Shown here: in pieces, positions 9,601-64,000 of the stretch
Numbering within the stretch: position 1 is the stretch's first letter
How the letters are laid out: every line of letters starts with the position of its first letter
Source: Monodelphis domestica
Lineage: Eukaryota
Length of the DNA stretch: 64,000 nucleotides
NCBI RefSeq assembly: GCF_027887165.1
Contig: NC_077227.1
Location: forward strand, 173,162,324-173,226,323
Reading direction: 5' to 3'
Made by a program: the position numbers and the translations under genes
Notes under the pieces: generated by a model
Told to the model about the DNA's origin: nothing
Seen by the model: only the letters and a program-made list of their open reading frames with translations
Databases searched by the model: none

Positions 9601-10303
9601 TGACTCCTAGGTTTTAAAGCTGAGGGACTGGAAGAATGATGGTATCCTCAATAAAATAAAAATATGGAATTTGGGAAGTTCCTGGGAAAGAATGTGAATT
9701 TTCTTTGGGAAATGTGGAATTTGAGATGTTTAAAGGATATTCCAGAAGGCAACTGATTTGAGATTAGAGTTCCAAAAAAAGTCATTAGGGCTACCTATGT
9801 GGGTATGGGAGTTTTTTGTATAGAGCTAACAAATTTGACCCTTTGTAACTTATGAGCTTCCTGAGAGTGCAAAAAAGAGAAAAAAGTCCAGGATAGCTTT
9901 CGTGAAAACTCCATTGAGGGGACAGATGAGCTACCAAAAGAGACTAAGAAGAAGTGATTTAACTAGTAAGAGAAGAACCAAAGAGATCAATATCATGGAA
10001 AGTAGGAGAGGAGTGAAGCCTGAGAAAATACCACTGTAACAACTTAATATCTTTTTTCCTGAACCTAACATTTGGTGGTGTTTTAGTTTGTGATTACATC
10101 TAGTTTATATTGTCCTAGAATGCAACATGGTTTGGACCAACACTCCAACATGCAAAACAGATGGAAATTGCCAGATGTACAATCTTGGATGCTAGAACTT
10201 CTGTTTTTCCTGTCCTGTTCTATACTCCCTTGCAGCCACCGGCGGGAAGAGCTATTTTAGAGATTCTCTGGCTTACTCAGAGTCTAGACAAAACCATACA
10301 GGA

Positions 10304-24420: not shown

Positions 24421-24510
24421 CTAGAAGGGTCTAAGGATGTTTGAATTTGGCTGTTTTAGCACTTTACCTCTAAAGAGCAAAACAACCCCTACAACCCCAC
24501 CCCCTTTCCC

Positions 24511-24638
<128 letters not shown>

Positions 24639-25294
24639 ATCTCTATATCTTTCTCTCCATATAAATAAATAAATAAAAATCTATATATATATATATCTCC
24701 TCTCCTCACATTAACTTTTGAGAGTCCCTGAGCATTAGACCTATAATTACAAATCAATAATCTGAAGAACAAATGACAAAAATGTGCATCTGATGTCACT
24801 GATTTTCACTTTATTGTTGTTTCTGGTGGGGAAGACTTGCTGAAAATCTCAGTTGTCTCTGATCCACCTCCAACCAGGCAATCTATTGCAATTTTCGAGA
24901 AGAAAACCATCTCTTCCCAAAATATCTTGCTTAGATTTCCCCCCACCTAACCTCCCCCCACCCTGCATTAAAGATCTATTATTGGTATTAGTCAATTTTT
25001 GTGTTAAAGTGCAAATCTACATGAGAGAGGTAATGCATTCATCGAGGCAATCAAGTCACTCACACTTCAGGGTGAATTTATTGTACCAGGCTTAATCACT
25101 CAAGAAAGCTAAGTGAAAGTAGTTACCCTTGGGGAACTGAAAGTTTGATAGCATAGAAGGAGACAAAACTTAGGAGCAAGGGGTAAAATTTAGGGAGCAA
25201 AAGTGGAATGTGGCAACAAAATATTGGGGCTCCAAGGCATAAGCAGCAGAAGACATTAGGATCAGAGCAAAGGTGATATTAGAAGCATAAAAAA

Positions 25295-25484: not shown

Positions 25485-27407
25485 AGAAGCATAAAAGAGC
25501 CAGGAAGGCGAGTAGAAGGATTCCATAGATATATTCTAATTACTTCACACTCTTGTCTAAGATACCTCTGTCTGTGATTGTTGATGCTGAATTCATTGAA
25601 ACTTTACCTTCTGAGTAGTAGCTGCTCTTGGGGGCTGAACTATCTGCACTAGTTTCATCCATGTGTTGGGTTTTTCCTTTAAGAAGTTATTGATTTCTTC
25701 CAACATAATACACAAGGGATTGGAATTCCCAGGATTCTTGAGGTCTAACATGGGAAAGGAGATGGATTCCAGGAAAGAACCAAGGAAATTGTTCAAGCAG
25801 CTCCAGACCACTTGCTGAATGACCTGCTGCAATGGATAAGAATCATTACAATTATAATAAATATAAATGTAATTAAAATTATAATCCTAATATAAGTATA
25901 ATTACATATTTATAGACCATCCCTGTAAAAATGCCTTGCTATTTGGTGGAAAGTGACAGAAGCTAGGGCAAAGGTTTATATGAGAAACAAGATAAAGCAT
26001 ACATGGTACATTTTGGTACTCTTCCCCCTTCCTCTTGATTCAATACACTTAAAATGAAGTAGGAAGGGATTGATAGGCTTGAAAACAGGCTGGAGATAAA
26101 TGGAGTGGGGAGTTGCCAAACTAGTGCAGCTCTCAGGAATAGGGCCACAGAGTACTTTTCAGGTTAGTCTGTTCTTGAGGTTCATGATATTTTTGTATGT
26201 TCCTTTATACTTTCAATTAATATATACTTATTGTGATACTTATTGTGTACTGACAAGATGTATGGGGGATGATGGTAGATAATGAAGATGACAAAAAGGC
26301 TAGACCAAAGTCCCTAGTCACATGGAGATACTAATCATCTTATTATCTAGTTGGATATATGAGATATGCACATGTAAAAAATTAACACTATAAGGACAAA
26401 TGTATAAATAAACATAATGTATATGAGGAGTTGTTTCCCCATTGTGGACTGGACCAAAAAAGGGAAAAAACAGGCTAAGAATGGACAGGGAACCCCAAAA
26501 AAAGGACTGTTCTATTTTCATCACCAATACCACTTCATTACCTACTATTAGAAAAAACATTATTCAAAACAATAAAAGAAGCTCCCAACTTTGTAGAACT
26601 TTGCAGTTTTAAAAAGTACATTTCACACAATATTCTTGTGAGGTAGAAAGGATAGTTCAGGGTTTATTATTTCCATTTAAAAAACTGAGAAATTGAGACT
26701 TAGAGAAGTGTGTCCACTTTCCCATGGTTGCACTGTTAGTAAATAGTTTGGAGTCAGGTCCTATGACTCCCAAGTCCAAAGAACCCACCATTACACCAGT
26801 CTTGAAGAGTAGGATCAGTATGTTTGAATCAACTGGAATGGGAAACATCTGAGAGGAATTATGGGCTAGTGGATAAATAGCCAAACTGAGAAAGCTTGTC
26901 AAGAAGACTGGGGTGTGAGACTCACTCTCAAGACCCAGTGATACATACCAAAGCTAGACAAATCATTGAGATTCTCCAATCTTCTGGCACACTGCTTTTC
27001 TCCATGTAGTCTATGATCTAGCTAAACTGGCCTCCTTAGGGTTCCAGATATAGAAGCAATAGAATCGTTATATCCTATCATTGCTCTTTTATTTTGCTAT
27101 CTCAAACTGTATGATTGAGGAAAAAACTGTAAGATTTAGTGAGTTAGAGACTGGTAGCTTTGTGGGGTTTTGTTTGGTTTTTGGATTTTTGGTAACTTTG
27201 GAGAGAACAGTTTCAGTTGAGTGATGAAGTCAGAAGCTAGATTGCAAAGTGCTGAGGAGTGAGTCAAGATGAAGTAGAGGCAATGCATGTAGAAAGCTTT
27301 TTCTAGGAGTTTGGTCAAAAAAGGAGGAATAATAAAAGGACTACAGATTGAGGGAATGGTAGGAAGGAATTGAAACAAATTTTAAAGGATGTTTGCAAAC
27401 AATAGGA

Positions 27408-30295: not shown

Positions 30296-30883
30296 GGATA
30301 TGATTAAGAGATGCTAAATGAGAGACTTCCGGGTAATCATGGCTGCAACCTAGACGCCGCACGCTTCCTCTCCCCAGCACCGAACGAAATAGACTACATC
30401 AAAGGAGCATAAAATCACCTTTGGAGGAACAGAAGGACTCCCCAGTACCCCACAGAGGCAAAGGTACGTGGGGCTTGAACATTTCCACACTAAAATAAGA
30501 AGGAAAAGCTTGCACAGAAAAGTGAACTGAGCCGCCCTTCCCCCACCCCACCTCCCCCACTAAACCAGAGTGAGCTACCTGAGCGCTCACCGGGACAGCG
30601 AGTGAGTGGGGAGCGTCTCTGTCTGGGGGGGCACTCCAGGGTCCTTGGGATCTGGGGACTGCCAGGAAAAAACGTCTCAGGGCGCTTTCACTGGAGAATC
30701 CAGCGGACCTGGACTTGGGGCGGGCTGCGCTGAACAACGCGCGCTGATTATCTGGGCGGAGCTGAATACCTGGGCTCGGAGGCTGGGAAGAACTAGTCTG
30801 AAGCAACCTAAATTCACAGAAAAACCGCTCTTATAACCCAGACCACAGACCAAAAAGGAAAGGGAAATAAAACCACCAAAGGG

Positions 30884-31867
30884 ATGGCTCACATGGCCCA
30901 AAATCAAGCCTCCAGGAAGAAAGGGAAAAAAGTGACTATTGAAAACTTTTATGGTGGAAGTACCCAAGGAAAAGAGGAGAATGAGGAGGAAATCCAAAAA
31001 AATTCAGAACACGCCTCCCAAAATGGAAACTATCAACAAGCTCTGGAAGATCTCAAACTGGAACTTATCCAAAAGATGGAAACCTTCTGGAAAGAAAAAT
31101 GGGAGAAAGAGATCAGCTGTCTGACAGATAAGACTGCTCAATTGGAAAAAGAACTCGAAGCATCCAATAGAAGGGCAGACAAGGCTGAAAAGCAAATCCA
31201 GTCCCTAATGACCAGAATTAAGCACCTCGAAGAAAGTGAGATGATAAAACAGCAAGAATCAATAAAGCAAACCCAAATAATTAATGAATTGGAAGAAAAC
31301 ATAAAATATCTCACTGAGAAGGTCACGGACCTGGAGAACAGAGGAAGACGAGAAAATCTCCGTATCATCGGTCTCCCAGAAAAACCAGAGGTAAACAACA
31401 AATTGGATATTATTCTAGAGGAGATTATAAAAGAAAATTGCCCCCACGTTCTGGAGCAAGGGGGCAAAATAGAAATAGAAAGGATTCATAGAACACCTTC
31501 TATACTAAATCCCCAAAAGACAACGCCCAGGAATGTAATTGCCATATTCAAGAGCTTCCAAGTAAAGGAGAAAATCCTACAAGAAGCCAAGAAGAAGAGC
31601 TTCAGATATAAGGGGGCTCCCATAAGGATCACACACGACTTAGCGGCTAATACACTAAGAGACCGCAAAGCATGGAACACGATATTTAGAAAGGCAAGAG
31701 AGCTGGGTCTCCAACCAAGAATCAACTACCCAGCAAAACTGACTATATACTTCCAGGGGAAAGTATGGGCATTCAACAAAATAGAAGATTTCCAAGCATT
31801 TGCTAAGAAAAGACCAGAGCTCTGTGGAAAGTTCGATATCCAAGCACAGAAAGCAAGAGAAACATGA
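30884..31867 (+). CDS. L1 ORF1 protein (327 aa), intact.
   Basis: Coiled-coil-rich translation (LEDLKLELIQKMETFWKEKWEKEI...) with the C-terminal RNA-binding region of L1 ORF1p. A second, diverged copy of the same protein begins at 63346. Confidence 0.9.
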   Translation: MAHMAQNQASRKKGKKVTIENFYGGSTQGKEENEEEIQKNSEHASQNGNYQQALEDLKLELIQKMETFWKEKWEKEISCLTDKTAQLEKELEASNRRADKAEKQIQSLMTRIKHLEESEMIKQQESIKQTQIINELEENIKYLTEKVTDLENRGRRENLRIIGLPEKPEVNNKLDIILEEIIKENCPHVLEQGGKIEIERIHRTPSILNPQKTTPRNVIAIFKSFQVKEKILQEAKKKSFRYKGAPIRITHDLAANTLRDRKAWNTIFRKARELGLQPRINYPAKLTIYFQGKVWAFNKIEDFQAFAKKRPELCGKFDIQAQKARET

Positions 31868-32553
31868 AAAGGTAAATATTAAAGAAAGGGAAAAGGAGAT
31901 AAATCTTATCTTTTTCTTTAAGTCAAACTCTCTTCTATAAGGACTACATTTACATCAAATTATATATATTAATATGTGGGGAAAATGTTTTGTGTAACTC
32001 TCATAAATTGTATCATCATAAGAGTAGTTAGAAGAAACATGCATAGGGAAAGATTGGGGAATTAAGAAGATTTGGGGAAAGTTGGGGCAAAAAAAGGAAA
32101 AGGGAGGGGGGAACCGTGATAATACTAAGATTAACTTCAAGAAATAGGGGGGGAATCAATAGAATAAACTTTCCCATATAAAGATACACATGGGAAGGGG
32201 AGGGGAAGAACTCTCATATGAGAAGGAGAGGAAGAGAGCGTGAAGTGGAATTACTTAAACCTTACTCTCAGTGAAATCAAATCTGAGAGGGAAGAACATC
32301 TAGATCCAGTGGGATCCTGAATTCTATCTTATCCATTAGGGCAAGAAAGAAAGGAAAATTAAGGAGGGGGAGGGGGGAGGGAGTACAAAAAGGGAGGGAA
32401 GGAGAAGGGGGAGGGGAAGGGAGCATAAAAAGGGAGGGGCTAGAAAGGGAAGCATCTCAAGGGAGGGGACTAGGGGGACTGACCTAAAGTAAATCACTGG
32501 TTCAAAAGGAGAAAGCTAAAGAAGAAAGGTCAGAACTAGGGGAAGACATCAAA

Positions 32554-35500
32554 ATGCCAGCGAATCCACAAATCACAATCATAACTTTGAACGTGAATGG
32601 GATGAACTCACCCATAAAATGCAGACAAATAGCAGATTGGATTAGAACACAAAACCCTACCATATGTTGTCTTCAAGAAACACATATGAGACGGGTTGAC
32701 ACTCACAAGGTTAGAATTAAAGGTTGGAGGAAGACCTTTTGGGCCTCAACCGATAGAAAGAAGGCAGGAGTTGCAATCATGATATCTGACAAAGCCAAAG
32801 TACAAATAGACCTGATCAAAAGGGACAGGGAAGGTAAATATATTCTGCTAAAAGGAAGTATAGACAATGAGGAAATATCACTAATCAATATGTATGCACC
32901 AAATGGTATAGCATCCAAATTTTTAATAGAGAAACTAGGAGAATTGAAGGAGGAATTAGACAGTAAAACCATATTAGTGGGAGACTTGAACCAACCACTA
33001 TCAAATTTAGATAAATCAAATCAAAAAATAAATAAGAAAGAGGTAAAAGAGGTGAATGAAATCTTAGAAAAATTAGAATTAATAGACATATAGAGAAAAA
33101 TAAATAGGGACAAAAAAGAATACACCTTCTTTTCAGCACCACATGGCACATTCACAAAAATAGATCATACACTAGATCATAGAAACATGGCACTTAAATG
33201 CAGAAAAGCAGAAATATTAACTGCAGCCTTTTCAGATCACAAGGCAATTAAAATATTGATCGGCAAGGGTACATGGAGACCCAAATCAAAAATTAATTGG
33301 AAATTAAATAACACGATACTCCAAAATCGGATAGTTAGAGAAGAAATCATAGAAACAATTAACAATTTCGTTGAAGAAAATGACAACGGCGAAACATCCT
33401 TTCAAACCTTATGGGATGCAGCCAAGGCAGTACCTAGAGGAAAATTCATATCCCTGAGTGCATATATTAACAAATTAGGGAGGACAGAGACCAAGGAATT
33501 GGAAATGCAAATAAAAAAACTTGAGAATGAACAAATTAAAAACCCCCAGAAGAAAACCATACTAGAGATTCTAAAAATTAAGGGAGAAATTAATAAAATA
33601 GAAAGTGACAGAACTATTGAGCTAATAAACAAGACTAGAAGCTGGTACTTTGAAAAAACAGACAAAATAGACAAAGTACTGGTTAATTTAATTAAAAAAA
33701 GGAAAGAAGAAAGGCAAATTAATAGCATCAAGGATGAAAAGGGGGATCTCACCTCAAATGAAGAGGAAATTAAGGCAATCATTAAAAACTACTTTGCCCA
33801 ACTATATGGCAATAAATATACCAACCTAGGTGATATGGATGAATATTTACAAAAATATAAATTGCCTAGACTAACAGAAGAAGAAATAGTTTTCTTAAAT
33901 AATCCCATATCAGAAATTGAAATCCATCAAGCCATCAAAGAACTGCCTAAGAAAAAATCCCCAGGGCCTGATGGATTCACCAGTGAATTCTATCAAACAT
34001 TCAGAGAACAGTTAACCCCAATATTATACAAACTATTTGACATAATAAGCAAAGAGGGAGTCCTATCAAACTCCTTTTATGACACAAGCATGGTACTAAT
34101 TCCAAAGCCAGGCAGGCCAAAAACAGAGAAAGAAAACTATAGGCCAATCTCCCTAATGAATATAGATGCAAAAATCTTAAATAGGATACTAGCAAAAAGA
34201 CTCCAGCAAGTGATTAGAAGGGTCATCCACCATGATCAAGTAGGATTCATACCAGGGATGCAGGGCTGGTTCAACATTAGGAAAACTATCCACATAATTG
34301 ACCACATCAACAAGCAAACCAACAAGAATCACATGATTATCTCAATAGATGCAGAAAAAGCCTTTGATAAAATACAACACCCATTCCTACTAAAAACACG
34401 AGAAAGCATAGGAATAGAAGGGTCATTCCTAAAAATAATAAACAGTATATATCTAAAACCATCAGCTAATATCATCTGCAATGGGGATAAACTAAATCCA
34501 TTCCCATTAAGATCAGGAGTGAAACAAGGATGCCCATTATCACCTCTATTATTTGACATTGTATTAGAAACACCAGCAGTAGCAATTAGAGAAGAAAAAG
34601 AAATTGAAGGCATCAAAATAGGCAAGGAGGAGACCAAATTATCACTCTTTGCAGATGACATGATGGTCTACTTAAAGAATCCTAGAGACTCAACCAAAAA
34701 GCTAATTGAAATAATCAACAACTTTAGCAAAGTTGCAGGATACAAAATAAACCCACATAAGTCATCAGCATTTCTATATAATTCCAACACAGCTCAGCAG
34801 CAAGAACTAGAAAGAGAAATCCCATTCAAAATTACCCAAGACAAAATAAAATACTTAGGAATCTATCTCCCGAGACAAACACAGGATCTATATGAACACA
34901 ACTACAAAACACTTTCCATACAACTAAAACTAGACTTGAACAATTGGAAGAACATTAACTGCTCATGGGTAGGACGAGCCAATATAATAAAAATGACCAT
35001 CCTACCCAAACTCATCTATCTATTTAGTGCCATACCCATGGAACTTCCAAAAATTTTTTTTACTGACTTAGAAAAAAACATAACAAAGTTCATTTGGAAG
35101 AACAAAAGATCAAGGATATCCAGGGAATTAATGAAAAAAAATACAAAGGAAGGGGGTCTTGCAGTCCCAGATCTCAGACTATATTATAAAGCAGCGGTCA
35201 TCAAAACAATTTGGTACTGGCTAAGAGACAGAAAGGAGGATCAGTGGAATAGACTGGGGGCAAGCAACCTCAGCAAGACAGTATATGACAAACCCAAAGA
35301 TCCCAGCTTTTGGGACAAAAATCCACTATTTCATAAAAACTGTTGGGAAAATTGGAGGACAGTGTGGGAAAGATTAGGCTTAGATCAACACCTCACACCC
35401 TACACCAAGATAAATTCAAAATGGATGAATGACTTGAACATAAAGAAGGAAACTATAAGAAAATTAGGCGAACACAGAATAGTATACATGTCAGACCTTT

Positions 35501-36360
35501 GGGAAGGGAAAGACTTCAAAACCAAGCAAGAATTAGAAAGAATTACAAAATGCAAAATAAATAATCTGGATTACATCAAATTAAAAAGTTTTTGTACAAA
35601 CAAAACCAATGTAACCAAAATCAGAAGGGTAGCAACAAATTGGGAAACAATCTTCATAAAAACCTCTGACAAGGGTTTAATTACTAAAATTTATAAAGAA
35701 CTAAATCAATTGTACAAAAAATCAAGCCATTCTCCAATTGACAAATGGGCAAGGGACATGAACAGGCAATTCTCAGCCAAAGAAATCAAAACTATTAATA
35801 AGCACATGAAAAAGTGCTCTACATCTCTTATAATCAGAGAGATGCAAATCAAAACAACTCTGAGGTATCATCTCACACCTAGCAGATTGGCTAACATGAC
35901 AGCTATGCAAAGTAATGAATGCTGGAGGGGATGTGGCAAAGTGGGGACATTAATTCATTGCTGGTGGAGTTGTGAATTGATCCAACCATTCTGGAGGGCA
36001 ATTTGGAACTATGTCCAAAGGGCGATAAAAGACTGTCTGCCCTTTGATCCAGCCATAGCACTGCTGGGCTTGTACCCCAAAGAGATAATGGACAAAAAGA
36101 CTTGTACAAAAATATTCATAGCTGCGCTCTTTGTGGTGGCCAAAAATTGGAAAATGAGGGGATGCCCCTCAATTGGGGAATGGCTGAACAAATTGTGGTA
36201 TATGTTGGTGATGGAATACTATTGTGCTAAAAGGAATAATAAAGTGGAGAAGTTCCATGGAGACTGGAACAACCTCCAGGAAGTAATGCAGAGCGAGAGG
36301 AGCAGAACCAGGAAAACATTGTACACAGAGACTGATACATTGTGGTACAATCGAAGGTGA
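32554..36360 (+). CDS. L1 ORF2 protein (endonuclease, reverse transcriptase, C-terminal domain), interrupted by a single in-frame TAG at 33091-33093.
   Basis: Endonuclease start [22 protein letters not shown]. The reverse-transcriptase motif FADDMMVY is present. Two ORFs (32554-33093 and 33187-36360) lie in the same frame and are separated only by one TAG. The minus-strand L1 copy has TGG (Trp) at the same position. Confidence 0.9.
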
Positions 36361-36629
36361 TGGACTTCTCCATTAGTATCAATGCAATCCCTGAACAATC
36401 TGCAGGGATCTAAAAAAAAAATACTACCCACAAGCAGAGGATAAACTGTGGGAGTAAAAACACCGCTGAAAAGCAACTGCTTGACTACAGGGTTGGAGGA
36501 GATAAGACTGAGGAGAGACTCTAAATGAACACTATAATGCAAACTCCAACAACAGGGAAATGGGTTCGAGTCAAGAACACATGTGATAACCAGTGGAATC
36601 ATTCGTCGGCTATGGGAGAGGGAAAGGCG

Positions 36630-39110: not shown

Positions 39111-39670
39111 TATTCAAACAAATGTTAGGTCCCACCTTGTCTTCTAGGTGCTGTTGAATTAATCTTATATCCAGGCAGATGATGTATAGGATCTGGCAAT
39201 GCAGACCAGGCAAGCTGGAAGCAGGAAGGGTGATGATATTTCCATGGAAGAGAGCCTGGGCATCAAGAATGATCTTCAGTGCTGCCTGGACCTGGGCAGA
39301 AGTCTCCCAGACCCCATTCCTATTGTGGGGCTTCAGAAACCAAGGTAAAACCACCACATCTGTCTGTGAACAAACAAGAAGCCCAAGAAGACAGAACAAA
39401 AATGAAGATGAACATCCTCTTAAAAAAAAAAAAACAAATGTTTCAATCAGGTAAAAGAATTCAAAGATATTTCCCTCAGCCTTAAAATTGCCAGAGCCCT
39501 CTATTCCTCCTTCCCTTGGCCCAAATAGGGATCCCCAGATCCCTTATGTGCTGAAAAATCCCCATGGAAATAAAGTCCAAAGTATTCCTAGATCACCAGT
39601 TCCAAGTATCAATCCTCACTGTCTAGATGGTCTTTCTTTTGTCCATCTTATTTTATTTTGTTCTACTTTT

Positions 39671-40006
39671 TTTTTTAAACCCTTACCTTCACTCTTGTAG
39701 TCAATATTGCGTATTGACTCCAAGGCAGAAGAGTGGTAAGGGCTAGGCAATGAGGATCAAGTGACTTGCCCAGGGTCACACAGCTAGGAAGTGGCTGAGG
39801 CCAGATTTGAACCTAGGACCTCTCATCTCTAGGCCTGGTTTCCAATCCACTGAGCTACCCAGCTGCCCCCTGAAAGGGCTAGGCAATGGGGATTAAGTGA
39901 CTTGCCCAGGGTCACCCAGCTAGGAAGTGTCAGAGTCCAGATTTGAACCTAGGACCTACCATCTCTAGGCCTGGTTCTCAATACACTGAGCCACCCAGCT
40001 GCCCCC
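39671..40006 (-). mobile_element. Tandem SINE dimer: one full copy plus one 5'-truncated copy, inside a single target-site duplication.
   Basis: The sequence ...ctgagctacccagctgccccc (39851-39871) is followed directly by ctgaaagggctaggcaatgggga..., a second copy. One target-site duplication, tgttctactttt, flanks the pair at 39659-39670 and 40007-40018. Confidence 0.85.
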
Positions 40007-40233
40007 TGTTCTACTTTTAAAGGAGATAGAAAATACATTGTTACATCTTCTGAATCCCTTAGACTAGTTAAGATCTGTTATTGCTCTCCTTTAGTTTTCT
40101 CTTTATTCGCAGTTCTTTGAGCTTTCCCTAGATCCCCACTGCCCAATTGATGATTCCTAATGATCACTCATAGATTCTCTCCAATTTGGACTACTGATCT
40201 AAGGGGAATGAGACTCAGTAAGTGATCACTTAC

Positions 40234-41292
40234 CTTCTGGTCAATGAGGCTTCCAACTACCACCTTCGTTTTTACAGCTTCCCAAGAGCTCAAGACATAG
40301 GGAAGGAGGACGTGGTGATCCTTTCCTCGGGGCCACCACCTGCAGCATTCTGCCTCACACTCAGCTACAAAGTCATTGTCATTTGCTGCAATTGTCAGGT
40401 TCCTCAGGCTGCTGCCTGGAGGCTGCTTGCTCTTAAATGCCTTGACTCCCAGAGTGATTCCCTTCGCTAGAGCTGCCAGGTCTGAGGGGTGGATCACCAC
40501 TGAAGCACTTTTCTCCTGGGATGCTGCTTGCAGTGCCAGAGTAACAGCATTGGCTATCAGCTCTTGGCTTTCAGCCTTAGAAGCCTGCCTCTTCCGTGAG
40601 CTGTGCCCAGACCAGGAAGATAAGAGTGTCACTTGTAGGAGTACTTGGGGAATACCTCGTTCATTCACTATATGCTGTCTCAGCACCCTTACCTTGGGGG
40701 CTGTTATGCCCATGCTGTGTCTATCCATTGGACTACTGCTAAGGCTTATGGTAACAGAGGCTCGAAAAGTGCAAGCTTCTCCTTTCCAGAGAAAGAGACT
40801 AAGGTCATCTCCTAGCTGGAAGAAACCACTCATCCTTCTACGCTCCTGAATCAGGCCAGGCCATAGGTTCATCCTCACAGTGGAATTGAGAAAGATCATC
40901 AGTTTACTGATGGCAGTCTTGGCCTCAGAGGCCACTTTCTGAGGACCAAAGAAGGAAATGATTGCAGAGTTCTCGATTAGTTGCCAGCCAACTTGCACCT
41001 TCCAGAGAGACAAATCCAGTGTTTCCTGTAGGACCATCCATAAGCAGAACTCCTCAGGGGTCACATAGAGCGTTTCATTTGTCCTGGGGTATCTCTGAAG
41101 GTGATCCTGTATCAACCAGATTTTATTGTCCCCAGAGGGGCCTTTTGGTTGTCTCCCCGAGATTCTCAGGAAAGGATCAGAAGGTTTGGCTCTGTCCCAG
41201 CTGAACCTGGGATCCCAAAGATCTTTATCATTTGAGACTTTTTTATAGCAGGCTTTTGGATGAGGTCCATTGCAGGTCAGAGACCCAGACAT
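40234..41292 (-). CDS. First coding exon (353 codons from the ATG) of an unidentified protein. It may be a lineage-specific 5' exon of the PARP14-like gene or a separate neighbouring gene.
   Basis: An ATG at 41292 is preceded by an acceptor-like T-rich tract, attttgatatag|AAG. The open frame is 1059 nt and ends at a consensus donor, CAGAAG|GTAAGT (40228-40236). GC content is higher than the flanks. I cannot assign a domain. Confidence 0.45.
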
Positions 41293-42235
41293 AGTTGATC
41301 GACCTTTTTACTTCTATATCAAAATTCAAAAGCCACCTGCCAGATTCCCCTACTTTTCTGGAAAAGGGTTAAAAAAGGATGTCATGTAAGAAAAATAATC
41401 ACAGCCTGGTATTGATAATAGTTAAGTATGATTAGCGACTTCTCTATGTACTCACCCCTGTGGGAGATGATACTCAGGAGAATTTACCAACTTGCATTCT
41501 GAAGGGAGTAGGGCTGGGCCAGGATAAAAATTTGATTTCTGTCTTTCTTTGCTTCTCTTTTTCATCCTATGTGTCTCTGTTCCCTATTAGTCAAGGTTAT
41601 GGGAGTGGAACTGGAGGAATAAAAGGAAAGAAAGACCACTTAAAGGAAGAGCTCCAGAAGTAGAGCTGTGTGAATGGAGCAAAATTATTTAAAACCCAAT
41701 GGCATAAGAAACAAACTAGGATGCAATTAAAATTAGGAGTGCTATCAGAGGATTTTCAAACCTATGTAGGAATATCAGGATTGTACCTTTGTATATATTC
41801 CTAAAACTAAATTGAGGCTATATTTTTCAGCTGTTTGTTCACTGTAATGCCCCTACTTATACTCTAGTTCTATCCTTCCTTCCCTTCCTCCCATTTACTT
41901 CCTTCTTATGTCAGGGTTGAAGGCATTTTTCCTACAGTAATTTTTTACTATAGCTCACTTGCAATCGTTATTCCATTTATGACCTATAAATATCATGATA
42001 TAATATTCTTTTAATTTTTCACTTTCAGTTTCAAATTCTCTCCATCCCTCCAACCTCTCTCCCATCTAATGAGAAAGCAAGAAATATGAAACCATTATAC
42101 ATATGAAGTCATGTAAAATATATTTCCATACTAGTCATGTTGTGAAAAAAAAAGCAAGAAAAATAAAGTGAAAAAAATATGCTCCAATCCACACTTAAGA
42201 GTCCATCAGTTCTCCCTGGAGGTAGATAGCATTTT

Positions 42236-42421
42236 TTTAAAACCTTAACCTTCCATCTTAGAATCAATACTGTGTATTGGTTCTAAGGCAGAAAAGTGGT
42301 AAGGGCTAGGCAATGGGGTGACTTTCCCAGAGTCACACAGCTAGGAAGAGTCTGAAGCCAGATTTGAACCTAGGACCTCTAGGCCTGGCTCTCAATCTAC
42401 TGAGCCACCCAGTTGCCCCTA
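42236..42421 (-). mobile_element. Marsupial tRNA-derived SINE with a target-site duplication.
   Basis: Target-site duplication gtagata(g/a)catttt at 42221-42235 and 42422-42436. Confidence 0.85.
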
Positions 42422-42429
42422 GTAGATAA

Positions 42430-44440
42430 CATTTTTAATAATGAGTCCCCTGAAACTGTTGTGGATCAGTTGTATTGATCAGGGTAGCCAAGTCTTTCAC
42501 AGCTAATTATCCTTATGATATTACTGTTACTGTAGACAATGATCTCCTAGTTCTGTTCACCTCACTTTGCATCAGCTCATATGTCTCCCCAGTCTTTTCT
42601 GAAATCATCCATTATTTCTTATAGTACATTTGTATTCCATCACAATTATACCACAACTTGATTAGCCATTCCCCAATTAATGAGCATCTCTCAGTTTCCA
42701 CTTCTTTGCCACCACAAAAAGAACCACTATAAACATTTTTGTACATATTGGGGCCTTTTGCTTTTGCTTTGATCTCTTTAGGATACAGTTCTGGTAGTGG
42801 AATGGCTGGGTCTGAGTATGTACGGTTTTATGGCCACTAGACCTAGTTCCAAATTATTCTCTTGAATGGTTGGGGAGCCAGCTAAACAAACAGTGAATGG
42901 GTTCAGATCCCATAATGAAGTAGAGATACCTGGAATGTCAATCACTAAAACTATTAGCCTGGCAAGGAAGTTACAGGAAAGGAGGCAGCTGGGCAATTCA
43001 GTCAGCAGGATGGTGGGGTACACACAAACACACACTAGTGATCAAGGAGCGAGGAAGTAGGTGGTGGTACTTAGAGGGGGGAAAGAGTTACACTCACTCT
43101 CACCTTGTTGCAAGAAGCCTTCTCTCATTACTATCAGCAATGAGCCATCTTCAGATGAAGAGCACCCGTGCTATTAGAGCATGGGCATTTTATTCTCTCA
43201 TAGTTTATCAGGAGAGGAGCAGTCCCAGAGCTCCCACCAGTGGGTTTCCAAAATGATTCCTGATAGCAGGATGTTTAAATGATGCTGGTGTTCCCACCAG
43301 TGGGCCCCTTTCAACAGGGAGAAGGGTCCAAACTGTTAGCACTGAGCTTGCTGCCCAATCAAATCAGTTTACAACTCTACTAATAGTGCATTAGTGTCCC
43401 TGTTTCTCCACATCCCCTCCAATATTTATCATTTTTCTTTTCTGTCATGTTAACCAGTCTGAGAGGTATGAGGTAGAACCTGAGTTGTTTTAAACTACAT
43501 TTCCCTAATTATTAGTGGTATCGAGCATTTTTCTTCTGAAAAAAGCTTTTCATATATGAAACCTGTTCATAATTTTTGACTATTTATTGAGGAATCGCTC
43601 TTTTTATAACTTTGGTTTGGTTTCTTACATAGTTGAGAAATGAAATCTTTGTTAGAGAAACTTCTATAAATATTTTCCCTCCAGTTTCTTGCCTTCCTTC
43701 TAATTTTGGTTATATTGGTTTTGTTTGTGCAAAACCTTTTTGATTTATTTCACTTCTCAGGATCCTCTCAATCTCTTATTTGGGTCATGAACTTTCTTCT
43801 CTCATCCATTGATCTGACAGGTAATTTTTTCCATGTCTTCCTAATTTTCTTATATCATCCTTCATGTCTAAATCATGCATGCATCTTGAGTTTATCTTAG
43901 TGTCATGAAGTACTGTAATACGCCTAGTTTCTGTCAGACTCTTTCCAGTTTTCCCAAATCATTCTATCAAATAATGAAATGATTTTTCAAATAATTCTTG
44001 CCCTAATACCTTGGTTTTTGGGTTTATCAAGCACTAAATTACAGTGGTCATTTATTTTGATATATTATATATCTAATCTGTTACACTGATCTATCACTCT
44101 ATTTGTTTTGATGCTTACCATTTGCTAGTATAATTTGAAATTTTGTAGTACTAGGCCATGTTCCTTCACATTTTTTCTTTGATTCCCTTAATATTCTTGA
44201 CTTTTCATCCCTCTAATAAATTTTATTATTTTTTCTAGTTTTACAAAGTAATTTTTGGTCATATGGGATGACATTTAATAAGTAAATTAATTTATGTAAG
44301 ATTCTGATTTTTATTACATTTGTTCAGCCTGCCCATCAGCAATTACTATTTCTCCATTTGTTTAAATTTGTCTTTATTTGTGTGAAAAGTGTTTTGTAAT
44401 AATTATTAATATTGTAGCAAGTCGATACACAAAGCAAATG
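42430..44440 (-). mobile_element. Old L1 3' fragment in reverse orientation.
   Basis: Reverse-complement similarity to the L1 ORF2 C-terminus and 3' region. Compare 42600-42900 and 43400-44300 with the minus-strand L1 at 47300-48300. Confidence 0.6.
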
Positions 44441-45544
44441 TATAGTACAAATATTTTGTATCACAGACACTTGGACTCCTGGCTATTCTCCAAAGTCAAT
44501 ATATTATCTACTGACTTGATATTAGCATGAATTATATCCCATGCTGTGAATGTATTTCTCAATTCTATCCTCAACTTCATTATCTTCCTTCGAAGCTCAC
44601 TTCAGATACTATCTCCTCAGTTATGCTTTCCACCATTCCCCCTCACACAGTTAATACTCCTTCCTTAATCAAACACTTTGTATTTATCTGTGATAGTATA
44701 GGTATGTGTGCACATTCATATATACATATATGCACACATGTGTGCCTAAACACATATAACATAAGTGTGTGTACACATACTTGGGCACATATATACACAG
44801 ATAGAGAGCTATACACATATGAATATATATCCCCAAGCAGAATATTGGTGCTTGAGGAACAAAATTCTTTTTTATCTTGGTACAGTGCCTTACATGAGGG
44901 AGGCACTTAAGCAGCTGTTGAATTAAATCAAGTATGGAAGACCCAGCCACCCAGAGGAAGTCATTTCTATAAACATCCAGTCACATAATCTTACTATTCT
45001 TTAAGTGGCTCTGAGGTTTTGAGCTCACTGGGAGGAATTTATTAAGCCGTAAACAGAGTTAAAACCAAACCAAACAAACAAACAAAAAAAACCCAAGTCT
45101 GCCACACATGTGACACTTTTATTTTAAACAATTTTTAACATTAAAAAAAAAAAAACATCCCACACTCACCTACCGAAGTGATACTGGCTCCATCATTCCT
45201 TTTTACCAAAAATCACTTTTTCCCAGCATAGATATCCCTGTGACTCTCCTCTGACCATCCAGTATATTCTGCCAAATGACTCTCTTCTTTTTATATAGGA
45301 TCGTTCCCACAATCAGCAATCAAAACGTCAAGCTCTCCAAAGACAATTATATTTCAGTTTCATTTCCTTGAAAATTTACCCAATCCCTTTACTCCAGAAG
45401 GTGGTGTTTAAAATGTATATGGGGTGTGGGGGTGAGGGGAGAGATTGACAAAGAGAGATATATATACGAGTTTATCAAACCTCAACACTTTCAGGATGAG
45501 CATATGAATAAAGATAGGTGAGGAGAAAATGGAGAAAATTTGAA

Positions 45545-46832: not shown

Positions 46833-49800
46833 TTTTTAATTTTATATTTTATTTGATCATTTCCAAGCATTATTCATTAAAGAAAAAGATCATTTTCTTT
46901 TCCTCCCCCCCCACCCCCCATAGCCAACGCGTGATTCCACTGGGTATCACATGTGTTCTTGATTCGAACCCATTGCCATGTTGTTAATATTTGCATTAGA
47001 TTGTTCGTTTAGAGTCTTTCCTCTGTCATGTCCCCTCAACAGCTGTAGTCAGGCAGTTGCTTTTCCTCGGTGTTTCTAACCCCACAGTTTATCCTCTGCT
47101 TATGAATAGTGTTTTTTCTCCTAGATCCCTGCAAATTGTTCAGGGACATTACACCGCCACTAATGGAGAAGTCCATTACGTTCGATTATACCACAGTGTA
47201 TTAGTCTCTGTGTACAATGTTCTGGTTCTGCTCCTCTCGCTCTGCATCACTTCCTGTAGGTCGTTCCAGTCTCCATGGAATTCCTCCACTTTATTATTCC
47301 TTTTAGCACAATAGTATTCCATCACCAACATATACCACAATTTGTTCAGCCATTCCCCAATTGATGGGCATCCCCTCGTTTTCCAATTTTTGGCCACCAC
47401 AAAGAGTGAGGCTATGAATATTCTTGTACAAGAATTTTTCTCCATTATCTCTTTGGGGTACAGACCCAGCAACGCTATGGCTGGATCAAAGGGTAGACAT
47501 TCTTTTGTTGCCCTTTGGGCATAGTTCCAAATTGCCCTCCAGAATGGTTGGATCAGTTCACAACTCCACCAGCAATGAATTAATGTCCCTACTTTGCCAC
47601 ATCCCCTCCAGCATTCTTTATTTTCCTTAGTTGTCATGTTAGCCAATCTGCTAGGTGTGAGGTGATACCTCAGAGTTGTTTTGATTTGCATCTGTCTGAT
47701 TATAAGAGATTTAGAACATTTCTTCATGTGCTTATTAATAGTTTTGATTTCTTTATCTGAGAACTGCCTATCCATGTCCCTTGCCCATTTATCAATTGGA
47801 GAATGGCTTGATTTTTTTGTACAATTGATTTAGCTCTTTATAAATTTGAGTAATTAAACCTTTGTGGGAGGTTTCTATGAAGATTTTTTTCCCAATTTGT
47901 TGTTTCCCTTCTGATTTTAGTTACATTGGTTTTGTTTGTAGAAAAGCTTTTTAATTTGATGTAGTCAAAGTTATTTATTTTACATTTTGTGATTCTTTCT
48001 ATGTCTTGCTTGGTTTTAAAGTCTTTCCCTTCCCAAAGGTCTGACATATATACTATTCTGTGTTTACCCAATTTACTTATGGTTTCCTTCTTTATGTTTA
48101 AGTCATTCACTCATTTTGAATTTATCTTGGTGTAGGGTGTGAGGTGTTGATCTATTCCTAATCTCTCCCACACTGTCTTCCAATTTTCCCAACAGTTTTT
48201 ATCGAATAGTGGATTTTTGTCCCAAAAGCTGGGATCTTTGGGTTTATCGTATACTGTCTTGCTGAGGTCGCTTGCCCCCAGTCTATTCCACTGATCCTCC
48301 TTTCTGTCTCTTAGCCAGTACCAAATTGTTTTGATGACTGCTGCTTTGTAATATAGTTTGAGATCTGGGACTGCAAGGCCCCCATCATTTGTGGTTTTTT
48401 TTTCATTATTTCCTTGGATATCCTTGATCCTTTGTTATTCCAAATGAGTTTTGTTATGGTTTTTTCTAAATCAGTAAAGAAATTTTGGGGGAGTTCCATG
48501 GGTATGGCACTAAATAGATAAATAAGTTTGGGTAGGATGGTCATTTTTATTATATTGGCTCGTCCTATCCATGAGCAGTTAATGTTTTTCCAATTGCTCA
48601 AGTCTAGTTTTAGTTCTGTGGAGAGTGTTTTGTAGTTGTGTTCATATAGTTCCTGTGTTTGTCTCGGGAGATAGATTCCTAGGTATTTTATTTTGTCTAA
48701 GGTGATTTTGAATGGGATTTCTCTTTCTAGTTTTTGCTGCTGAGCTGTGTTGGAGATATATAGAAAAGCTGATGACTTATATGGGTTTATTTTGTATCCT
48801 GCAACTTTGCTAAAGTTGTTGGTTATTTCAATTGGCTTTTTGGTTGAATCTCTACGATTCTTTAAGTAGACCATCATGTCATCTGCAAAGAGTTATAACT
48901 TGGTCTCCTCCTTGCCTATTTTGATGCCTTCAATTTCTTTTTCTTCTCTAATTGCTACTGCTAGTGTTTCTAGTACAATGTCAAATAGTAGAGGTGATAA
49001 TGGGCATCCTTGTTTCACTCCTGATCTTATTGGGAATGCATCTAGTTTATCCCCATTGCAAATGATATTAGCTGATGGTTTTAGATATATACTGTTTATT
49101 ATTTTTAGGAACAACCCTTCTATTACTATGCTTTCTAGTGTTTTTAATAGGAATAGGTGTTGTATTTTATCAAAGGCTTTTTCTGCATCTATTGAGACAA
49201 TCATGTGGTTCTTGTTGGTTTGCTTATTGATGTGGTCAATTATGTGGACGGTTTTCCTAATATTGAACCAGCCCTGCATACCTGGTATAAATCCTACTTG
49301 GTCATGGTGGATGACCCTTCTGATCACTTGCTGGAGTCTTTTTGCTAGTATCCTATTTAAGATTTTTGCATCTATATTCATTAGGGAGATTGGTCTATAG
49401 TTTTCGTTCTCTGTTTTTGACCTGCCTGGTTTTGGAATCAGTACCATGTTTGTGTTGTAAAAGGAGTTTGGTAGAACTCCCTCTTTGCTTATTATGTCAA
49501 ATAGTTTGTATAGTATTGGGATTAACTGTTCTCTGAATGTTTGATAGAATTCACTGGTGAATCCATCAGGCCCTGGGGATTTTTTCTTAGGAAGTTCTTT
49601 GATGGCTTGTTGGATTTCATTTTCTGATATGGGATTATTTAAGAATTCTATTTCTTCTTCTGTTAGTCTAGGCAGTTTGTATTTTTGTATATATTCATCC
49701 ATATCACCTAAATTGGTGTATTTATTGCCATATAATTGGGCAAAGTAATTTTTAATGATTGCCTTAAATTCCTCTTCATCAGAGGTGATGTCCCCCTTTT

Positions 49801-51124
49801 CATCTTTGATGCTGTTAATTTGCTTTTCTTCCTTCCTTTTTTTAATTATACTGACCAGTACTTTTGTCTATTTTGTTTGTTTTTTCAAAGTACCAGCTTC
49901 TTGTCTTATTTATTAAATCAATAGTGCTATCACTTTCTATTTTATTAATTTCTCCCTTCATTTTTAGGATTTCTAGTTTGGTTTTCTGCTGGGAGTTTTT
50001 AATTTGATCGCTTTTGAGTTTTTTTATTTGCATTTCCAATTGATTGATCTCTGCTCTCCCTAGTTTGTTAATATATGCACTCAGGGATATGAATTTACCT
50101 CTGATTACCACTTTGGCTGCATCCCAAAAGGTTTGAAAGGATGCCTCGTCATTGTCATTTTCCTCGATGAAATTATTGTTTCTATGATTTCTTCTCTAAC
50201 TAAACGATTTTGGAATATCATATTGTTTAATTTCCAATTAGTTTTTGATTTGGTTTTCCATGTACCATTACTGATCATTATTTTTATTGCCTTGTGATCT
50301 GAGAAGGCTGCATTTATTATTTCTGCTTTTCTGCATTTGTGTGCTATGTTTCTGTGACCTAATGTATGGTCAATCTTTGTGAATGTGCCATGTGGTGCTG
50401 AGAAGGTGTATTCCTTTTTATCCCTATTTATTTTTCTCCATATGTCTATTAATTCTAATTTTTCTAAGATTTCATTCACTTCTTTTACCTCTTTCTTATT
50501 TATTTTTTGATTTGATTTATCTAAATTTGATAATGGTTGGTTCCAGTCTCCCACTAGTATGGTTTTACTGTCTATTTCTTCCTTCAATTCTCCTAGTTTC
50601 TCCATTAGAAATTTGGGTGCTATATTATTTGGTGCATACATGTTGATTAGTGATATTTCCTCATTATCTAAAGTCCCTTTTAACAAAATATAATTACCTT
50701 CCCTATCCCTTTTGATCAGGTCTATTTTTGCTTTGGCTTTATCAGATATCATGATTACCACTCCTGCCTTCTTTCTGTTAGTTGAGGCTCAGAAGGTCTT
50801 ACTCCATCCTTTAATTCTGACCTTGTGGGTGTCAACCCGCCTCATGTGTGTTTCTTGAAGACAACATATGGTAGGGTTTTGGATTCTAATCCATTCTGCT
50901 ATTCGTCTGCGTTTTATGGGTGAGTTCATCCCATTCACATTCAAAGTTATGACTGTCACTTGTGGACTCCCTGGCATTTTGATATCCTTCCCTAATTCTA
51001 ACCTTTCTTCTTCAGCTCTACCTTTTAGTCCAGTGATTTACTTTAAATCAGTCCCCCTTGTCCCTTCCCTTGATATGTTTCCCTTTCTAGTCCCTCCCTT
51101 TTTGTTCCCTCCCTCTCCCCCCTC
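46833..51124 (-). mobile_element. 5'-truncated L1 on the minus strand (3'UTR, ORF2 with several frameshifts, and an inter-ORF remnant), flanked by a target-site duplication.
   Basis: The reverse-complemented L1 3'UTR with poly-T begins at 46826. ORF2 pieces lie in reverse orientation. The target-site duplication gagtacaattcattttt sits at 46816-46832 and 51125-51141. Confidence 0.9.
47176..50977 (-). pseudogene. Degenerate L1 ORF2 broken into at least 7 ORF pieces by frameshifts and stop codons.
   Basis: Minus-strand ORFs at 50789-50977 (endonuclease start [22 protein letters not shown]), 50105-50761, 49842-50111, 48893-49702 (reverse transcriptase), 48311-48877, 47838-48110 and 47176-47775 (C-terminus). 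Confidence 0.85.
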
Positions 51125-62560: not shown

Positions 62561-63163
62561 ATAATTAATAATAAATGCTTAGCCCTTTGCTTTCCCTTTC
62601 CAGTCTCCTTTAAAAATCCTGATGGGGAGACTTCCGGTTAAGATGGCGGCTTAGAGAAAGCTAAAGTTCAGATCTCCGGAAAACCCTTCCCAACCTATCT
62701 CAAACTATAAGCTCCTAAGGTGCCGAAATTCAAAACGATCAACAGCACAGACCCTGGGAACCCTCCTCCTGGACCTGGACCCGGTTCAAAAGGTACGGCT
62801 CCCCTCAAAAGCCAGAACCCGAGATCACTCGGACTTCAGGGGTAGGAGCGCAGAGTCCAAGGCTCCCGGAAGCCGCAGCCCGGCAGGGCTCAGAGAGCAG
62901 GGTCCTCGGAACAACAACCCTCAGGGCCTTCTACCCGAGTCCCGGTGAAAGTTACTGCCTGGGGCTTCTGCTGCAGAGAGCTGGTCGAAACAACAGCAAC
63001 CTTCAGGGCGGGCAAGACAGCCTCACTGGCTGGATCCTGCTATCCAAGTCTCAGTGAAAGTCCTTGCCCTCGGAGCTTGGGGAAGCTGCAGCCCATCCCC
63101 CCCGCAGGCCGACGAAACAGCCTCACGGCCAGCGATTCTGAAGGCAACTTCCGGAAAGCGAGC

Positions 63164-63190
63164 GGGGGGGGGGGGGGGGGGGGGGGGGGG
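63164..63190 (+). repeat. Homopolymer (G)27 inside the L1 5'UTR.
   Basis: agcggggggggggggggggggggggggggggaagag. Confidence 0.9.
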
Positions 63191-63345
63191 AAGAGTGTGG
63201 CCTCCTGGTCCGACCCTTCCATTCCAGTTCCAGTGAGGCATATTCAGTTTAACCCAGGGAAAGCTCATAGAACCAACATCTGCCCAGGACTAAAGCCTCT
63301 GAACACCAGACAGAGATAAGAAAAGCTAATCCTCCACATTCAGAG

Positions 63346-64000
63346 ATGGCAAACTCCACAGAAGCACAGAAGCCCCAAAATACCAAGAAAAATAAGAAGA
63401 AAGGGGCGACTTTGGACACATTCTATGGAGCCAAAATACAAAATACAGAGCAGATAGAAGAAGATATACAAGAAAATTCTCCAAAATCTTCCAAAGGAAA
63501 TAGAAACTCTCCACAAACCCATGAAGAATTTGAATCAGAAATGACCAAAAAGATGGAAGCCCTCTGGGAGGAAAAGTGGGAAATAATGCAAAAGAAATTC
63601 ACGCATCTACAAAACCAGTTTGACCAAACTGTAAAAGAAAACCAGGCTTTAAAGCAAGAACTAATAAAGCAAAGCCAAAACACCAAGAAATTAGAAGAGA
63701 ACATAAAATATCTCACCGACAAGGTGATAGATCTGGAAAATAGAGGGAGAAGAGAAAATTTAAGAATAATTGGACTCCCAGAAAAGCCAGAAATAAACAC
63801 CAAACTGGACATGGTGATACAAGATATAATCAAAGAAAATTGCCCAGAGATTCTAGAACAAGGGGGCAATACAGCCACTGACAGAGCTCACAGAACACCT
63901 TCTACACTAAACCCCCAAAAGACAACTCCCAGGAATGTAATTGCCAAATTCCAAAGCTATCAAACAAAAGAAAAAATCCTACAGGAAGCCAGAAAAAGAC
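63346..64000 (+). CDS. L1 ORF1 protein, N-terminal 218 codons, truncated by the window edge.
   Basis: MANSTEAQKPQNTKKNKKKGATLDTFYGAKIQNTEQIEEDIQENSPKSS...MEALWEEKWEIMQKKFTHLQNQ...NIKYLTDKVIDLENRGRRENLRIIGLPEKPEINTKLD... It is open to position 64000 and homologous to the ORF1 at 30884. Confidence 0.8.
   Translation, partial: MANSTEAQKPQNTKKNKKKGATLDTFYGAKIQNTEQIEEDIQENSPKSSKGNRNSPQTHEEFESEMTKKMEALWEEKWEIMQKKFTHLQNQFDQTVKENQALKQELIKQSQNTKKLEENIKYLTDKVIDLENRGRRENLRIIGLPEKPEINTKLDMVIQDIIKENCPEILEQGGNTATDRAHRTPSTLNPQKTTPRNVIAKFQSYQTKEKILQEARKR

Follow-up and report, generated by a model that had tools for sequence, protein, structure and literature searches.

The window analysed here (the whole stretch of 64,000 nucleotides from the opossum Monodelphis domestica, contig NC_077227.1) contains on its minus strand a gene listed in RefSeq as LOC103103755, and this report concerns the long open frame, at positions 41292-40234, with which its coding sequence begins. 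The frame is the real first coding exon of LOC103103755, an ordinary exon that is already in the annotation; since it belongs to the RefSeq model, it does not represent an undiscovered gene. The best explanation, in which we have high confidence, is that it forms coding exon 1 of a minus-strand gene of ten coding exons and about 31 kb, and that it specifies an N-terminal tail, a KH-like domain and a truncated macrodomain module. The coding exons are:

41292-40234, minus strand: coding exon 1 of LOC103103755, a macro-PARP paralogue (open frame, donor, colinearity with orthologues, identity to RefSeq)
39363-39136, minus strand: coding exon 2 (228 nt, phase 0/0), reading TDVVVLPW..., the middle of macro-like domain 2
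25826/25823-25608, minus strand: coding exon 3, with a NAGNAG tandem acceptor, encoding the end of macro-like domain 2 (...FLESISFP...WMKLVQI...)
24092-24065, minus strand: coding exon 4, a 28-nt mini-exon (MTENFKTPP plus 1 nt) located by a constrained AG/GT search
22396-21009, minus strand: coding exon 5, the KH-like array, starting in phase 1 (tblastn and boundary reading)
18257-18197, minus strand: coding exon 6, 61 nt (tblastn and boundary reading)
15535-15011, minus strand: coding exon 7, the last KH-like domain and a PARP14-type WWE domain (tblastn, Pfam, PDB match 1x4r)
12125-11989, minus strand: coding exon 8, a linker and the start of the ART domain (tblastn and boundary reading)
11281-11110, minus strand: coding exon 9, the ART domain with the LFHGT histidine (tblastn, PDB comparison)
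10569-10304, minus strand: coding exon 10, the ART domain with the GIYFA tyrosine and the KIFVTF isoleucine, TGA at 10306-10304 (tblastn, Pfam, PDB)

An earlier note on this DNA, made from the letters alone, had described a 1059-nt frame running from an ATG to AAG and GTAAGT, and both this and its translation proved correct. The exon is read on the minus strand from the ATG at 41292-41290 through 353 open codons to AAG, is followed by a phase 0 GTAAGT donor, and ends at 40234, a size of 1059 nt; without splicing at this donor the open reading frame would run to a stop at 40168 (374 aa). An in-frame TAA lies 18 nt 5' of the ATG and an A occupies position -3, as read from the sequence. The open segment holding the exon comprises 379 codons and ranks third in the window, behind L1 ORF2 and the KH exon. 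Among 200 simulated first-order Markov sequences of 64 kb each, the longest open segment averaged 143 codons and reached at most 211; given the base composition of the exon itself, a run of 379 open codons has a probability of about 4e-9. The GC content of the exon (0.47-0.52) exceeds that of most of the surrounding sequence (0.32-0.43), as had been noticed, though the first ~750 nt of intron 1 (39500-40249) also reach 0.47. The acceptor-like tract reported 26 nt upstream of the ATG is present as a T-rich tract before an AG at 41315-41314, but this AG lies 21 nt from the ATG; sugar glider has an AG at the equivalent place. A tblastn search of the 64 kb found no other copy of the exon, which is single-copy there.

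The remainder of the gene was located with the 1365-amino-acid sugar glider protein. In tblastn it matched the window in nine colinear minus-strand blocks covering residues 1-1364, from 41292 to 10310, with exon 1 colinear with residues 1-357 at 72% identity. Ten GT-AG exons with consistent phases give an uninterrupted coding sequence of 4080 nt (span 41292-10304) and a product of 1359 aa, which is RefSeq 'uncharacterized protein LOC103103755' (1360 aa), 100% identical apart from one glutamine at the NAGNAG acceptor. The translation of exon 1 is 100% identical to residues 1-353 of that protein. The suggestion that the frame is a genuine 5' coding exon is therefore upheld by its length, its orthologues and the RefSeq model.

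Exon 2 is bounded by the acceptor ttcacag and by a donor of AAG then gtggga; in tblastn it covers sugar glider residues 351-429, and its DNA is 84% identical to that of sugar glider with one 3-nt gap. At exon 3 (25823-25828; cag, CAG, GTC) use of the acceptor at 25826 adds one Q, which opossum RefSeq and isoform X1 of sugar glider contain and sugar glider X2 lacks. Exon 4 is needed because only with this 28-nt mini-exon is the reading frame restored; when candidates were scored against VTEDFRTPL and MTEYFRTPL, 24092-24065 scored 30 and the next candidate 9. In all orthologous proteins and in opossum RefSeq, the exon 1/2 junction reads ...IDQK to TDVVVLPW..., and the position of the exon 1 donor is kept in all orthologues, including read-through open reading frames on short Logan contigs.

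These results bear on the junction that the earlier note proposed, from 40234 directly to 22373 behind an AG at 22374, which would yield a protein without macro-like domain 2. Both sites are in phase 0, the junction would preserve the reading frame, the AAA at 22373 being a codon of exon 5, and the sequence tctctgtcag is acceptor-like. The AG at 22374, however, lies 22 nt inside exon 5, whose start is at 22396 in phase 1, and a stronger acceptor, ccttttttctag, stands 22 nt upstream at this conserved exon start. The direct splice is unused by sugar glider isoforms X1-X3, by the 708-aa isoform of Tasmanian devil and by opossum RefSeq, all of which run through exons 2-4, and these exons are conserved and under constraint. 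We consider such a splice very unlikely.

Two shorter isoforms were observed in relatives. The 708-aa isoform of Tasmanian devil lacks the KH array and the WWE domain, its mini-exon being joined straight to exon 8. Because the boundaries of exons 4 and 8 are both in phase 1 in the window, a macro-macro-ART short isoform is also possible in opossum. Sugar glider isoform X3 loses macro-like domain 1 through a donor within exon 1, after ...GFFQ; it is unavailable in opossum, because the equivalent site (~40815) reads CAG, CTA and has no GT.

Homologs of exon 1 were not easily retrieved. The 353 residues alone matched no Pfam family at E <= 10, gave only chance matches (E ~ 1) against PDB with phmmer, and had no match in a word-indexed search of 5.8 billion proteins. 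With a profile, the word-indexed search returned only the Tasmanian devil protein; this index seems poor for short or diverged eukaryotic queries. Of 1.84 billion cluster representatives scanned exhaustively with HMMER, 10 matched; nine carry the similarity at their own N-terminus, and the tenth is a fragmentary model that begins partway through. The sugar glider protein is 73% identical over residues 1-353 and the 708-aa protein of Tasmanian devil 71%; remoter matches are lizard, rattlesnake, turtle and caecilian proteins of 1348-1723 aa. Their source labels are 'uncharacterized protein' or 'Poly [ADP-ribose] polymerase'. Taking the HMMER and full-length protein searches together, proteins beginning with exon 1 occur in nine marsupials, 10 or more squamates, alligator, turtles and a caecilian (>20 tetrapods). 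No eutherian or bird orthologue was found in these searches, which cannot prove absence.

The earlier note had suggested that the exon could be lineage-specific, but the same N-terminal exon, with its donor at the same place, is found in squamates, alligator, turtles and the caecilian. Its other proposal was that the frame is the first exon of a separate, undescribed neighbouring gene. It is true that 18 kb, including a nearly full-length L1, separate the exon from the first PARP14-like (KH) exon that can be recognised downstream. In more than 20 species, however, single proteins colinear with the window join this N-terminus to the KH, WWE and PARP parts, which also bears out the first of the note's two alternatives, that the exon and the downstream 'PARP14-like' exons are one gene; exons 2-4 are present with correct phases, and the L1 is intronic and antisense. 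A separate gene is thus most unlikely.

Selection on the exon was assessed by the method of Nei and Gojobori, comparing opossum with a sugar glider coding sequence that was rebuilt from its locus and matches the protein exactly. Exon 1 as a whole gave a nonsynonymous rate (dN) of 0.150, a synonymous rate (dS) of 0.362 and a dN/dS of 0.41; by part, the ratio was 0.61 for the disordered tail, 0.43 for the small KH-like domain and 0.34 for macro-like domain 1, with 0.39 for the whole coding sequence. The exon DNA is 83% identical to that of sugar glider and is interrupted by only one 3-nt and one 9-nt gap, while the upstream flank is 63% and intron 1 77% identical, with most gaps not multiples of three. 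Because dN/dS is 0.41 and indels in the exon come only in multiples of three, unlike those of its flanks, exon 1 is a translated exon under moderate purifying selection. Invariant hydrophobic and tryptophan positions in it have persisted for about 350 million years.

The same data speak to the idea that the frame is a decaying relic, that is, a pseudogenised exon or chance open reading frame retained by automated models. Its macrodomain motifs are eroded, dN/dS reaches 0.41 overall and 0.61 in the tail, and the turtle models appear fragmentary. Squamates, alligator, the caecilian and nine marsupials nevertheless all keep the frame intact; the pattern of indels and a dN well below dS, a length far past chance, and the invariant positions just mentioned leave this explanation highly implausible. 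The probability that the frame is a captured transposon or retroviral coding sequence is negligible, since, rich as the window is in L1 and SINE (short interspersed element) copies, the frame is single-copy there, matches no transposon family in Pfam, has the N-termini of syntenic PARP genes as its sole homologs, and adopts a macrodomain fold in prediction.

Neither a lack of conservation nor a transposon hit, outcomes that the earlier note would have taken against its exon, was seen. To learn what exon 1 encodes, structures were predicted with AlphaFold2 for residues 1-498 from an 8-sequence alignment (mean predicted local distance difference test, pLDDT, 62.8) and for residues 62-347, wholly within exon 1 (mean 65.8). 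The longer model has a disordered region (1-69), a beta-alpha-beta-beta-alpha unit (71-138) and two alpha/beta regions (~153-320 and 341-492). Exon 1 can accordingly be divided as follows:

41292-41086, minus strand: disordered N-terminal tail, codons 1-69 (pLDDT 28-40, no secondary structure)
41085-40873, minus strand: small KH-like domain, codons 70-140, beta-alpha-(short alpha)-beta-beta-alpha in the predicted structure
40845-40273, minus strand: macro-like domain 1, degenerate and truncated, with a linker helix, codons ~150-340 (Foldseek, profiles)
40272-40234, minus strand: first beta-strand of macro-like domain 2, codons 341-353 (KTKVVVGSLIDQK; strand E341-346), the domain being cut by intron 1

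The tail, at 62% identity to sugar glider, is the least conserved part of the exon and cannot be aligned beyond marsupials. The caecilian orthologue possesses at residues 40-102 an extra N-terminal KH_PARP14_5-like domain (E = 2.8e-4); because this sits at the position of the tail, the marsupial tail may be an eroded KH domain. The KH-like domain that follows is 83% identical to sugar glider. DSSP assigns strands at 71-77, 100-106 and 109-116 and helices at 79-91 and 118-138, and the exon-only model reproduces these elements at pLDDT 70-83. Residues E73, E81, L84, W85, L88, W97 and V99 are invariant from caecilian to opossum. Pfam detects a KH signal at residues 70-140 only faintly, and in the orthologues only, and the assignment in exon 1 is by topology alone.

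The second half of the exon is predicted to have a macrodomain-like fold. A Foldseek search of PDB with the model of residues 1-498 placed human PARP14 macrodomains 1 and 2 (4d86) first, with E = 1.7e-15 over 382 aligned columns, followed by the macrodomains of macroH2A, PARP9, PARP14 and PARP15; 128 PDB chains had E <= 1e-3, and the top-ranked matches listed are almost all macrodomains. The exon-1-only model retrieved essentially only macrodomains, at E = 1e-4 to 1e-2, with macroH2A at 1.3e-4 and further matches to PARP14 macrodomains (MD) 1, 2 and 3, PARP9 MD1, PARP15 MD2, Af1521 and MACROD2. Profile hidden Markov models agree: that of exons 1-4 matched PARP14 MD1-2 at 2.5e-6, and those of exon 1 alone matched SauMacro, macroH2A and PARP15 MD2 at E = 2.7e-4 to 3.6e-3, weakly but consistently. 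Nearly all sub-threshold matches of the exon-1-only profiles are macrodomains; one profile found five chains at E < 1e-3, and with another all five matches at E < 0.1 were of this kind. The earlier note could place the translation in no family but had proposed structure prediction with Foldseek among its checks, and it is this route, with profiles, that assigns it a KH-like domain and a degenerate macrodomain.

Macro-like domain 2 occupies residues 341-~495 and is spread over exons 1-3. By profile alignment codons 341-353 correspond to the start of PARP14 MD2, the sequence reading ...KVVVGSLIDQK and then TDVVV.... The Pfam Macro family (PF01661) does not score above its gathering threshold in exon 1 or in the full opossum protein, and its matches in orthologues are all sub-threshold (best E = 0.099 among 10; caecilian E = 0.011 and 16 bits, cut-off 22); Pfam scans of the exon 1 region of each orthologue found no significant family.

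The alignments reveal losses in both domains. The first strand of macro-like domain 1 retains W-K-G-E/D, but TISLSS stands in place of VNAANS, the GGG loop is absent, the GxxG phosphate loop has become HPSDLAALAKG, VVIHPSDLAALAKG stands in place of xIPAISSGxxG, and ~39 residues are deleted mid-domain relative to SauMacro. Macro-like domain 2 has VVVLPW for VVVNSV and FPMLDLKNPGNS for FPAIGTGNLGF. Because the asparagine and glycine-loop motifs are missing from the alignments, both are probably pseudo-macrodomains that have lost canonical ADP-ribose binding and hydrolysis. They resemble the canonical macrodomains of macroH2A, Af1521, SauMacro and MACROD2 in their alpha/beta fold, in the W-x-G-D/E of the first strand and in a C-terminal beta-alpha-beta-alpha half that superposes at 2.5-3.4 A, and differ from them in lacking the NAAN asparagine, GGG, GxxG and, in macro-like domain 1, the ~39 residues.

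The domain order of the whole protein is tail, KH-like, macro, macro, KH array, WWE, ART, with the macro-like domains at ~150-495 and the ART domain at ~1170-1359 of the same coding sequence. The product contains no RRM, in keeping with the earlier remark that the frame does not resemble the RRM-containing N-terminus of PARP14. The Pfam PARP catalytic domain scores 69 bits (cut-off 26.7), and the WWE domain of exon 7 is recognised by Pfam WWE_1 at 28.8 bits (cut-off 27) and by WWE at 24.2 bits (cut-off 21.1), with a PDB match to the Parp14 WWE structure 1x4r. KH families remain below the gathering score in the window protein (KH_PARP14_6, 25.6 bits, cut-off 27; KH_PARP14_8, 18.1; KH_PARP14_4, 14.4), the KH_PARP14_4 and KH_PARP14_6 matches falling in exon 5; KH_PARP14_8 reaches 32.1 bits in the sugar glider orthologue. 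Against PDB, the ART domain is closest to PARP15 (2e-38), followed by PARP14 (9e-31), PARP12 (2e-28) and PARP10 (9e-23), and possesses the motifs LFHGT, GIYFA and KIFVTF. We take PARP14 L1782 to be the L of SLFVAF; because this residue aligns with the isoleucine of KIFVTF, presumably the third residue of the triad, we read the motifs as an H-Y-I triad, of the type found in active mono-ADP-ribosyltransferases.

The neighbourhood of the gene was examined in its orthologues. At the sugar glider locus the head-to-head neighbour, ~9.7 kb away, is a TEP1-like gene encoding 2626 aa with TROVE, NACHT and WD40 domains. In alligator the gene next upstream encodes WGR, PARP_reg and PARP domains, and an unannotated 395-aa open reading frame is also present. 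PARP2 and TEP1 presumably adjoin on human 14q11, and the orthologue neighbours suggest a conserved PARP2/TEP1 neighbourhood. No other gene, TEP1 included, was found in the 64-kb window; by extrapolation from the sugar glider alignment, opossum TEP1 would lie beyond its end.

PARP14, in contrast, is located with PARP9 and DTX3L on 3q21, and its domains follow the order RRM, KH array, three macrodomains, KH8, WWE, ART (PMC13224862). Because both domain order and genomic neighbourhood differ, LOC103103755 is a separate paralogue in the PARP14/15 clade and not the PARP14 orthologue, which disposes of the idea that exon 1 replaces the RRM region of PARP14. Among solved structures, those of PARP14 and PARP15 are nearest to its ART and macro-like domains. 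With PARP14 it shares putative PARP14-type KH-like repeats, a C-terminal block of a putative KH8, WWE and ART, tandem macrodomains and a triad of H, Y and a hydrophobic residue. Unlike PARP14 it has no RRM, and it has two macro-like domains, lacking the ADP-ribose-binding motifs and placed N-terminal to the KH array, where PARP14 has three C-terminal to it; it is also shorter (~1360 against ~1800 aa), and its triad ends in I, where that of PARP14 has L.

The fold and profile searches also matched PARP9 MD1 and MD2 and PARP15 MD2, and the ART domain is nearest to that of PARP15. PARP9, however, has an inactive ART domain and no WWE, and PARP15 has neither a KH array nor a WWE domain (PMC13224862) and is confined to eutherians (PMC4038475), whereas LOC103103755 possesses a KH array, a WWE domain and intact ART motifs alongside degenerate macrodomains. 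Membership of the PARP9/DTX3L/PARP14 cluster, or a PARP9-like or PARP15-like identity, was ruled out by the TEP1-like neighbour, the WWE domain and the intact ART motifs.

The marsupial and reptile LOC entries, like RefSeq LOC103103755 and UniProt A0A7N4UZA8 (Sarcophilus, 'Poly [ADP-ribose] polymerase'), represent the same gene. The RefSeq record is automated only, nameless and without the N-terminal domains; its precomputed Pfam domains are PARP, WWE_1 and one KH family. No literature specific to this paralogue was found: Daugherty et al. (2014) include only 'marsupial PARP14-like sequences' in a tree, and neither a 2026 PARP14 review nor a 2026 preprint on DTX3L-PARP9 evolution mentions it. 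Taken as a whole, the interpretation in the earlier note is partly supported.

Upstream of exon 1 and elsewhere in the window we located the following:

45379-45350, minus strand: candidate interferon-response element, with a GAS (gamma-activated sequence)-like TTCAAGGAA and an ISRE (interferon-stimulated response element)-like GGAAATGAAACTGAAA, from a motif block
45298-45160, minus strand: candidate TATA box (45298-45287), with GT donors and ~90 nt of conserved sequence, as seen on alignment with sugar glider
47179-51037, minus strand: L1 copy
30400-36400, plus strand: L1 copy
62945-64000, plus strand: L1 copy
1604-2119, plus strand: L1 copy

The 30-nt block at 45379-45350 reads GTAAATTTTCAAGGAAATGAAACTGAAATA, its ISRE-like part being GAAACTGAAA, and is identical in sugar glider. 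Its distance to the ATG is about 4.06 kb in opossum and ~0.65 kb in sugar glider. The segment 45298-45160 may be a non-coding first exon spliced to the AG at 41315-41314, and through the GAS/ISRE-like block LOC103103755 may be interferon-inducible, like PARP14 and PARP9. About 3.3 kb (41665-45017) separating this block from the ATG has no counterpart in sugar glider (locus positions 9589-9641) and holds L1-derived open reading frame fragments, for example at 43749-43570 and 42827-42615; it has the appearance of an insertion specific to the lineage, in the 5' intron or the promoter region.

Further repeats lie in the introns. Intron 1 contains two tandem copies of a ~125-nt SINE-like repeat (40007-39882 and 39871-39746), a pair that is absent from sugar glider intron 1 (a 348-nt gap); further copies of the repeat lie near 37.4, 24.4, 9.5 and 5.0 kb, and the sugar glider locus has it as well. 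The L1 in intron 2 (30400-36400) is nearly full length and antisense to LOC103103755, with ORF1 at 30884-31867 (327 aa), ORF2 at 33187-36360 (1057 aa) and its endonuclease part in another frame at 32554-33093. The intron between exons 3 and 4 has a long (CT/GA)n microsatellite (24473-24700, minus strand), which translates as SLSLSL....

Several points weigh against the explanation we favour, in which exon 1 opens LOC103103755 with a tail, a KH-like domain and a truncated macrodomain module. Single-sequence searches of Pfam and PDB see no macrodomain in exon 1. Neither AlphaFold2 model exceeds moderate confidence (mean pLDDT 63-66); prediction is poor in the N-terminal half of macro-like domain 1, where pLDDT is 31-55, and template modelling (TM) scores are at most about 0.5-0.6, and no more than about 0.5 to single macrodomains. 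The loss of ADP-ribose binding is read from alignments, the splice junctions were derived from homologous protein predictions in RefSeq, Ensembl and UniProt, and a dN/dS of 0.4 indicates fairly relaxed constraint. The proposed interferon-inducibility draws on one conserved motif block.

As to function, exon 1 contributes the N-terminal module (tail, KH-like domain, truncated macrodomain and opening strand of macro-like domain 2), and the pseudo-macrodomains might give an active mono-ADP-ribosyltransferase a module for structure or protein interaction. Tentatively, and with more doubt than confidence, we propose that the gene represents a distinct and ancient tetrapod lineage of macro-PARPs, extending from caecilians to marsupials in a TEP1/PARP2 neighbourhood and lost in eutherians and possibly birds, in which the ADP-ribose pocket was lost more than 300 million years ago and the pseudo-macrodomains were kept by purifying selection for a new role. 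Placed in front of an active and possibly interferon-induced H-Y-I mono-ADP-ribosyltransferase, they would perhaps take part in protein interaction or autoregulation, or act as decoys for viral factors. As a group, macro-PARPs evolve fast, are antiviral and are linked to interferon (PMC4038475, PMC13224862).

The gene itself was already predicted, is little known and is of moderate specialist interest. LOC103103755 appears to be an unnamed macro-PARP paralogue of non-eutherian tetrapods, with macrodomains that are apparently disabled and a transferase that, judged by its motifs, looks active. Marsupial 'PARP14-like' sequences are consequently not all PARP14. Should the proposed lineage be real, it would in effect be an 18th PARP type, missed by a human-centred PARP nomenclature. 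Placental mammals appear to be without this gene, and a macro-PARP lineage absent from them could help to show which roles, besides ADP-ribose binding, a macrodomain module can play.

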